A stretch of DNA of 63,785 nt, filler included, from Olpidium bornovanus S191 (Eukaryota > Fungi > Olpidiomycota), in the NCBI GenBank assembly GCA_017911155.1. It is 29 parts of 29 records of this genome, joined end to end, with 100 filler letters (N's around TTAATTAATTAA, not from the genome) between each part and the next. Parts side by side here need not be neighbours in the genome. Positions count along the whole stretch, not along the records: positions 21,259 to 23,475 come from JAEFCI010009374.1; 28 more parts are not named here. The stretch is one strand, 5' to 3'. This document shows, piece after piece, positions 22,256 to 23,170 of this stretch. Each line of letters starts with the position of its first letter. Position 1 is the first letter of the stretch. The notes under the pieces are model-generated. The model ran no database searches, was not told where the DNA came from, and saw only the letters and a list, made by a program, of their open reading frames with translations. The position numbers and the translations under genes were made by a program.

Positions 22256-22405
22256 CTACAGCACACTGATAAACTTAGGGCAAGAGAGATTCCTGGCAGG
22301 CTCCCAGGTATTGTAAGATGAGTCATCTCCTTTCCATTTGACGAGGAATTTGTGAGTGCTGTCCACTTCTTGTCTATCTTGCAATAGGCGGTCAACAAGA
22401 TAGTC
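22256..22405 (-). pseudogene. Chromodomain directly downstream of a copia integrase
   Basis: DYLVDRLLQDRQEVDSTHKFLVKWKGDDSSYNTWEPARNLSCPKFI matches the chromodomain pattern Y.V..I...R......YLVKWKGY....NTWEP..NL. Confidence 0.9.
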
Positions 22406-22499
22406 CTTTTCGTCAGAATCTTCCAAGGGTTTAAAGTGGAGAGCCGTGTTCAAGGCCTCTTGGCTTGGGAGCATCGGTGGCGGGGGATGCCCTTCCTTT

Positions 22500-23170
22500 T
22501 TACATGATGCTTTCATCGAAGGTCACATCACAGCGCTCAACGATGGAGTCACTTGCCGGGTCCCATACACGATATTCTTTGGACGTTAGGGAATAACCGA
22601 CATGATATCCTACTGTGACAGCATCTCCCAGTTTCGATGATCGCTCGTCTTTTAGAAGATGGTAATACACTCGGCATCCCAGAATCCGGAGGTGAGAGGG
22701 TAAGTCTGTCGGAGTCGGGTTGTATCTCTGGAGGGGAAGCTCTTTCTTGAGGAACATGTGTGGAGAACGATTGTAGATATATACCATTGCCTGCCACAGT
22801 TCATCCCAGATATAAATAGGAAGACCGGAGTCGATCAGGACTGCACGAACTCTATCCAGAATCGTCCGGTTAAGTCGTTCAGCAATGTCATTTTGTTCAG
22901 GCGTCGAGCGGATAGTCAATTGATGGTGGATTCCGTTAACATTCAGGAAGGAAGTAAAAGTGTCGTTTGGTACTCGCCACCCCGATCAGTCCGGAGAATT
23001 TTGAGCTTCATGCCAGTAGTGCGTTTGCCCGCAGCAAGCATGCACTTGAAACAGGCGAGAGAAGTTTCGGCGGATCGGTTAGGACAAGAGTGGGCAACAG
23101 CAAAACGATTGAAGTCGTCAATCCAAGTAAAAACGTAGTTATTCGCTGAGATGCTAAGCTCCATGGGACC
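22500..23170 (-). mobile_element. Ty1/copia integrase core (rve) plus retroviral-type SH3, frameshifted
   Basis: GPMELSISANNYVFTWIDDFNRF...LKILRTDRGGEY / TPEQNDIAERLNRTILDRVRAVLIDSGLP..IW...VYIYNRSP / LRILGCRVYYH...KEYRVWDPASDSIVERCDVTFDES. Confidence 0.92.

Follow-up and report, generated by a model that had tools for sequence, protein, structure and literature searches.

The locus described here raises the question of whether a chromodomain can belong to a Ty1/copia-type integrase in an early-diverging fungus, or whether the two were brought together by chance. The window, i.e., the whole stretch of DNA that was analysed (63,785 nucleotides from the root-infecting zoosporic fungus Olpidium bornovanus S191, assembly GCA_017911155.1), is composed of 29 short contigs with N linkers between them. 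The fragment of interest is on a contig of 2217 bp (21259-23475), where the copia piece takes up 909 bases of the minus strand (23174-22266). Table 1 shows the features of this contig and the related pieces found elsewhere in the window. The eight motifs quoted in an initial annotation were all present on this single contig and strand. Three stop-free pieces correspond to rve, SH3_retrovirus and Chromo, all over the Pfam curated cut-offs, confirming the copia core, SH3 tail and chromodomain recognized at that time.

Table 1. Features of the fragment's contig and pieces of related elements on other contigs of the window.
Feature	Position	Strand	Evidence or remarks
WIDDFNRF	23125-23102	-	motif, copia rve core
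LRTDRGGEY	22996-22970	-	motif, copia rve core
TPEQNDIAERLNRT	22904-22863	-	motif, copia integrase
RVWDP	22571-22557	-	motif, copia SH3 tail
CDVTFDES	22532-22509	-	motif, copia SH3 tail
YLVDRLL	22402-22382	-	motif, chromodomain
FLVKWKG	22348-22328	-	motif, chromodomain
SYNTWEPARNL	22318-22286	-	motif, chromodomain
Upstream flank, GC-rich repeat family common to downstream flank	23175..23475		repeat families D3, D5 copied on both sides
5' part of copia integrase core (rve)	22968..23174	-	Pfam rve E 8.9e-9; ends in frameshift near 22967
C-half of integrase with catalytic Glu (AERLN), then copia SH3 tail (~22697-22506)	22503..22967	-	Pfam SH3_retrovirus E 1.4e-19
Premature TAA (22502-22500), frame change, short acidic/Pro linker to chromodomain	22412..22502	-	
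HP1-type chromodomain, cut in last helix	22266..22411	-	Pfam Chromo E 3e-12
GC-rich tandem repeats (12/24, 44, 65, 66-bp units), 3' of fragment, outside copia Pol	21259..22265		
Copia RT fragment of the clade, other contig	53649..53969	+	93% identical to P0001 over 107 aa
Decayed Gag-protease-pre-integrase, P0116-like, Ty3-type capsid	15456..16917	-	tblastn E 1e-71; Pfam Ty3_capsid, Retrotrans_gag, Pol_BBD; clade-Gag HMM 64 bits
Decayed Gag-protease, P0115-like	9425..10594	-	tblastn E 4e-35; clade-Gag HMM 98 bits
Gag fragment, clade type	8149..8556	+	clade-Gag HMM 35 bits
Gag fragment, clade type	29426..29773	+	Pfam Ty3_capsid E 1e-6; clade-Gag HMM 27 bits

The fragment is a dead, doubly truncated internal piece of a Ty1/copia LTR retrotransposon. 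At 23174 the truncation has removed the Asp that opens the DDE catalytic triad, and the cut at 22266 falls within the last helix of the chromodomain. The gap between the SH3 tail and the chromodomain, first estimated at about 100 nt, measures 106 nt and includes the one TAA and the one frame change that had been reported; a second frameshift, absent from that description, is located inside the rve core near 22967. The chromodomain had been considered intact-looking but is not fully so: its last helix is truncated and, in the aromatic cage, two of three positions are kept (Y and W) and the third is Asp. Its best PDB matches were CBX5/HP1 (E 1.5e-13), and no second chromodomain was detected when the six frames of the window were scanned. 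Since the copy is devoid of Gag, RT, LTRs and one catalytic Asp, it is non-functional, and RT, PPT and LTR are missing at the locus because the copy is truncated. No RNA dataset was listed for the stretch containing the fragment. As for its identity, the element was almost certainly of the copia type and carried a chromodomain on its integrase.

The Pro/Ser-rich repeats beyond the chromodomain had been compared to a copia integrase-RT linker. This interpretation did not hold: GC-rich repeats flank the copia piece on both sides and, therefore, the apparent linker is foreign DNA; in intact relatives, RVT_2 is reached 46-87 aa after the end of the chromodomain. Short contigs of three metagenome runs, named X1-X3, contained a 65-bp unit of the flank (window 21532-21624) at high depth and with 95-99% identity, and this unit may be a high-copy repeat, either of the host or of a relative. 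The Gag piece at 16917 has a GC-rich repeat upstream (17120-17600) that resembles 23204-23285 in the flank of the integrase fragment (78-85% over 39-59 nt), which could reflect a shared low-complexity element. As an isolated observation, the location of the relic within tandem repeats carries no weight for heterochromatin targeting.

Related copies were identified in X1-X3, which belong to one study. Contigs covering 22266-23174 at about 91% identity were present in all three runs (one in X1, one in X3 and two in X2). Their match comprises exactly these positions, beyond which both ends continue, unlike the window. The 30-base loose ends of these contigs were read by hand: on one side the helix of the chromodomain goes on as it does in P0001, which is the best homologue found for the window integrase, and on the opposite side there is the motif with the first catalytic Asp, which the window copy lacks. 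Over about 909 bases, the X1 contig differs from the window at 82 sites and has 13 gap positions, and it runs for 1.7 kb past the chromodomain, approximately an RT-RNase H region by length alone. In the X1 and X3 contigs there is a sense codon at the place of the window's stop, and with their indels the reading frame is preserved between integrase and chromodomain; the related contigs also have one extra base near 22967. The third cage position is Tyr in a related metagenome copy, which makes the cage complete (3/3). At least 14 synonymous and at least 17 non-synonymous codons distinguish the window from the related copy (33 of 40 substitutions listed), counts that are mixed with decay and do not constitute a selection test. 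Comparison of the X1-X3 contigs with window positions 15402-21158 produced short, low-identity pieces only. A scan of JGI metagenomes with the window integrase as query identified 12 loci (28-56% identity), none with a chromodomain; viral contigs searched with P0116 gave no match, and the ESM Atlas returned generic rve/SH3 clusters only (all <0.9), taken as leads only.

Related proteins were then collected, 104 as hits of a regional search and others as the best 150 of 203,101 in a search of the whole library with P0001, which gave a set of 255. It represents a sample and not a census, because the library search ranked the proteins on likeness to P0001. This protein, 67% identical to the window integrase over 160 aa, is encoded by one ORF of 826 aa with SH3 (126-190), Chromo (216-264) and RVT_2 (326-570; Pfam E 7e-57) domains. 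Of the 255 proteins, 12 were matched by a chromodomain profile: nine belong to copia, two are Pol proteins of gypsy elements and one is a non-Pol ORF. The order SH3-Chromo-RVT_2 was confirmed by Pfam in P0001 and in all eight others, i.e., in nine distinct proteins of one ORF each, which are the one-ORF copies that the initial annotation had proposed to look for. Eight of the nine are metagenome records (Logan, ENA or JGI), and three cluster mates joined the chromodomain set later (9 distinct rows, 12 rows in total). In all nine relatives rve and SH3 precede RVT_2, which is the copia order, and the chromodomain follows SH3 after a linker of 20-30 aa from which GP[YF] is absent, in agreement with the lack of a GPY/F motif noticed at the locus. 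The three-residue aromatic cage is complete in eight of them, and the remaining one, P0223, has His at the third position. HP1/CBX1/3/5 were the top PDB matches of the chromodomain. The best PDB match of the clade profile was the 7z0h integrase (E 1.7e-36), a chain that we take to be the Ty1 integrase. Long insertions (35-90 aa) in the RT just before YVDD were observed in P0115 and P0117, and shorter ones in P0141 and P0175.

The junction could be a local accident, in which a gypsy or host chromodomain piece, or a misassembly, ended up behind a copia integrase. The window copy taken by itself would fit this explanation, as it is cut at both ends, has a stop and a frame change at the junction, and lies among repeats; its contig measures 2.2 kb and the assembly is fragmented. 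However, independent metagenome contigs span the junction in frame, nine intact ORFs have the SH3-chromodomain junction, and the integrase and the chromodomain share P0001 as nearest relative, with no other chromodomain in the window. The in-frame contigs and the nine ORFs refute a local accident, to which we assign a probability close to nil. Among the closest relatives there was no copy without the chromodomain, no unique or misassembled junction, and no chromodomain grouped with adjacent chromovirus copies, the findings that had been named at the outset as arguments against a copia-chromodomain lineage.

The relationships among these proteins were analysed in unrooted trees built without Ty1 or CoDi references. 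A match to RT-RH was present in 226 proteins, and 177 were kept after removal of those longer than 1750 aa or with a span below 430 residues. In the FastTree tree of the 177 rows, all 12 chromodomain rows were within a group of 15 (support 92). An IQ-TREE RT-RH tree was constructed with 49 of the 177 rows (9 chromodomain rows, 3 of their FastTree groupmates, 12 near and 25 spread), and the nine chromodomain rows plus P0141 formed one clade (99/99), hereafter the clade. P0147 and P0151, candidate members according to FastTree, fell outside it and were rejected. P0141, the sister of P0117, has a Ty3-type Gag and is without a chromodomain; a short unrecognisable stretch is found at the corresponding position (~855-900), so that P0141 is likely a case of chromodomain loss. 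The clade was placed among relatives of conifer, spider and basidiomycete copias, to which its RT-RH is 30-43% identical.

The fragment itself was placed with an integrase tree of 53 rows, from which the chromodomain was left out and in which the bootstrap had not settled. The window and P0001 were paired (100/98) within a group of eight chromodomain rows and P0141 (92/93), and P0148 and P0223 fell elsewhere, on a long and weakly supported branch away from the remaining chromodomain rows. The chromodomain tree also paired the window with P0001 (90/89), and identity between these two chromodomains was 64%, compared with 40% and 26% to two gypsy chromodomains. Because both trees pair the window with P0001, the integrase and the chromodomain are co-inherited. 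In the chromodomain tree, whose deep branches are weak, the copia and gypsy chromodomains were not separated (3 changes; 500 of 500 shuffles as low), and a gypsy origin of the domain was not distinguishable from a host origin. The nine one-ORF proteins, their single clade, the pairing with P0001 and the fungal assembly uphold the original proposal of a copia lineage with an integrase chromodomain in an early-diverging fungus. Most likely, the chromodomain was gained once in this lineage and lost at least once (P0141), independently of the chromodomain of the diatom CoDi-A elements.

Clade pieces were not limited to one contig. The integrase fragment and five more pieces were found in the 64-kb window, on six separate contigs, and the four Gag pieces all had clade-type Gag, with no ordinary Gag among them. 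The presence of five further fragments on five other contigs indicates that the clade is common in the assembly. These numbers bear on the alternative that the element is real but its contig comes from an organism co-assembled with the fungus. The Olpidium bornovanus host record that matches the window is flagged as a metagenome-assembled genome, the fragment's contig has no host gene and X1-X3 are metagenomes, all of which would be compatible with a foreign source. Against it stand the spread of the clade over six contigs, the uniform type of the Gag pieces and the affinities of the host gene that was searched, a DnaJ gene on another contig, which is 100% identical to the Olpidium bornovanus record and has chytrid and zygomycete proteins as its next matches (50-58%). 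A co-assembled source is, in our opinion, quite improbable. Other intron-containing host genes or pieces in the window encode Hsp70 (25866-27809), a Rad51-family protein (42243-42812), adenylosuccinate synthetase (43673-45121), Mss4 (33099-33575) and an IQ-motif protein (4446-5513); the DnaJ gene (Scj1-like, 52283-53487) belongs to the same group. The 1066-bp contig with the copia RT fragment (53648-54713) also includes, after this fragment and an AT-rich stretch, a gypsy-like integrase zinc-finger/rve piece (54180-54683, plus strand; 24% to P0105/P0106), a nest of two elements.

The Gag region of the clade was characterized in six full-length families. Retrotrans_gag was recognized in all six, Ty3_capsid in five and Retrotran_gag_2 in none, and one CCHC was present in all six. 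A profile of the clade Gag matched the PDB entries of dArc2/dArc1 (E 3e-7), PEG10 (E 3e-4) and also Arc, and the Copia capsid was absent from its 16 PDB hits at E<=10; against the Ty3 Gag-Pol it gave E 4e-17 over profile positions 134-406. With a control profile from ten ordinary copias, the Drosophila Copia capsid was first among the Gag hits (E 5.9e-37). A Gag census was carried out on the 122 of 177 rows with at least 1200 aa. Clade Gag was found in the nine full-length clade rows (leave-one-out 63-139 bits), where the ordinary profile reached at most 4.7 bits. Outside the clade it was found in 0 of 113 rows, 108 of which had ordinary Gag (10 of them profile seeds) and five neither. The clade and ordinary Gag profiles matched each other with 41% probability in the C-terminal domain only, i.e., the two Gags appear to be distant homologues. 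PF03732 alone was rejected as a gypsy Gag marker because P0216 and P0026 have it beside Retrotran_gag_2. A single Gag piece from the window had no match in the PDB.

An AlphaFold model of the clade Gag (pLDDT 89) showed a two-domain capsid. Foldseek ranked dArc/PEG10 structures 1-7 and Copia 44. VIA-align gave Z 14.7 for the PEG10 C-domain (rmsd 1.4, 83 aligned), and dArc1 (Z 11.6, rmsd 7.1, 159 aligned) was level with the Copia capsid (Z 11.2, rmsd 5.9, 153 aligned). Judged by its sequence, the clade capsid is gypsy-like (Ty3/Arc-like), which may stem either from an exchange of modules or from a retained ancestral Gag. A broader scenario, which we find conceivable but rather doubtful, is that the clade is a chimera, with copia protease, integrase, RT and RNase H and a capsid and chromodomain from a Ty3/gypsy chromovirus; such elements would be abundant in Olpidium and other early-diverging fungi, would insert in H3K9-methylated heterochromatin and would be independent of CoDi-A.

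The initial annotation had allowed for precedents outside fungi, and one exists. Llorens et al. (2009) described a putative integrase chromodomain in the diatom CoDi-A elements and, in the available part of that account, in no other copia (PMC2774666), a description restated in the excerpted text of Ustyantsev et al. (2017; PMC5348765). As far as the accessible portions of other surveys go, REXdb places the chromodomains of plant elements only in chromoviruses, with 0 among 5410 copias (PMC6317226), chromodomains are linked to gypsy in a survey of fungal LTR elements (PMC3248453), and the word chromodomain is absent from a survey of ascomycete copias (PMC5445492). No report of a fungal chromodomain-copia, or of a copia with a Ty3-type capsid, was found in the open literature that was searched, including papers that mention chytrids. 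Thus, the copia chromodomain is published in diatoms and apparently unreported in fungi.

Could the clade be a fungal branch of CoDi-A, with one chromodomain gain for both? The site of the chromodomain is the same, at the integrase C-terminus in a copia-order Pol (PMC2774666, available part), and the clade, like CoDi-A/CoDi-I, has no GPY/F module. However, the same part of that paper assigns CoDi-A to Branch 1 and reports no CCHC knuckle in 7/7 elements, versus one CCHC in 6/6 clade families. The consulted section of Maumus et al. (2009) describes CoDiI as distant from the Copia lineage (PMC2806351), a distance that contrasts with the RT-RH identity of the clade to conifer, spider and basidiomycete copias. 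The hosts also differ, a zoosporic fungus in one case and, in the published accounts as far as available, diatoms only in the other. Common descent with CoDi-A is therefore considered improbable. By the published markers, the clade is apparently set apart from CoDi-A. It would work like CoDi-A or a chromovirus but was filed in neither.

The clade shares features with several known systems besides CoDi-A. Like ordinary members of the Copia lineage (Drosophila Copia, Tnt1, fungal copias), it has Pol_BBD, gag_pre-integrs, rve, SH3_retrovirus, RVT_2 and RNase H in one ORF; these members, in contrast, have a Retrotran_gag_2 Gag and no chromodomain, and the clade Gag matches dArc/PEG10/Ty3. A Retrotran_gag_2 Gag is customary in Ty1/copia but does not formally define the superfamily. 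An integrase-linked chromodomain with an HP1 cage is common to the clade, the chromoviruses (the Tcn1, Maggy and Tf1 clades of Ty3/gypsy) and the oomycete Chronos, and the capsid of the clade is of the Ty3/Arc type. In the chromoviruses, the RT is RVT_1, the integrase follows RNase H, a GPY/F module is present and the chromodomain is terminal, whereas in the clade SH3_retrovirus precedes the chromodomain, RVT_2 follows it and GPY/F is absent. The arthropod CopiaMBD are copia elements with a captured methyl-CpG-binding domain. They resemble the clade in the gain of a chromatin-reading module between integrase and RT, and differ in the reader domain and in their separate branch of the RT tree. 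Five copia polyproteins of our set (P0008, P0019, P0022, P0047 and P0056) are listed with a methyl-CpG-binding domain (PF01429), and P0008 and P0019 share a larger RT group of 21 rows (95/97) with the chromodomain clade.

In this lineage a single polyprotein has the order Gag-protease-integrase-SH3-chromodomain-RT-RNase H, and we consider it probable that, in active members, the chromodomain stays on the integrase tail, binds H3K9me and biases integration towards heterochromatin. The protease would cut downstream of the chromodomain, which is located 20-30 aa behind SH3 and 46-87 aa before RVT_2, and the integrase would then retain it. The cage would bind methylated H3K9, a ligand suggested by the likeness to HP1 and group I chromovirus chromodomains, and the integrase tethered to H3K9me nucleosomes would insert preferentially in heterochromatin. 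In the accessible text of the respective papers, the cage of type I and cellular chromodomains is reported to bind methylated H3K9 (PMC6317226), and integrase-fused chromodomains are thought to steer insertion into heterochromatin (PMC5348765, citing Gao et al. 2008). By analogy, heterochromatin targeting by the clade is likely.

A different outcome, which we regard as unlikely, is that the chromodomain is a trait of the lineage but has another target (H3K27me, H3K4me or nucleic acid), or that the protease frees it with the RT or alone. The same cage exists in the Polycomb/CBX7 and CDYL readers, which the chromodomain also matches, the cage is incomplete in P0223 and the domain has decayed in P0141. 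Nonetheless, HP1/CBX1/3/5 ranked above the Polycomb-type matches, the spacing is tight to SH3 and loose to RT, and integrase-fused chromodomains are described as heterochromatin-targeting in the part of the literature at hand (PMC5348765).

A chromodomain on the integrase is treated as nearly diagnostic of gypsy chromoviruses; fragments such as the one described here would be misfiled by annotation tools. The perfect match between the clade and a Ty3-like capsid bears on the exchange of Gag-Pol modules between Pseudoviridae and Metaviridae. The clade offers a test of whether a chromodomain can target from inside a polyprotein, left on the integrase by proteolysis, and the loss of the domain in P0141 is a useful natural control. 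The argument that tethering to heterochromatin evolves again and again gains strength from this second copia lineage, which is apparently of independent origin and has its HP1-type cage intact.
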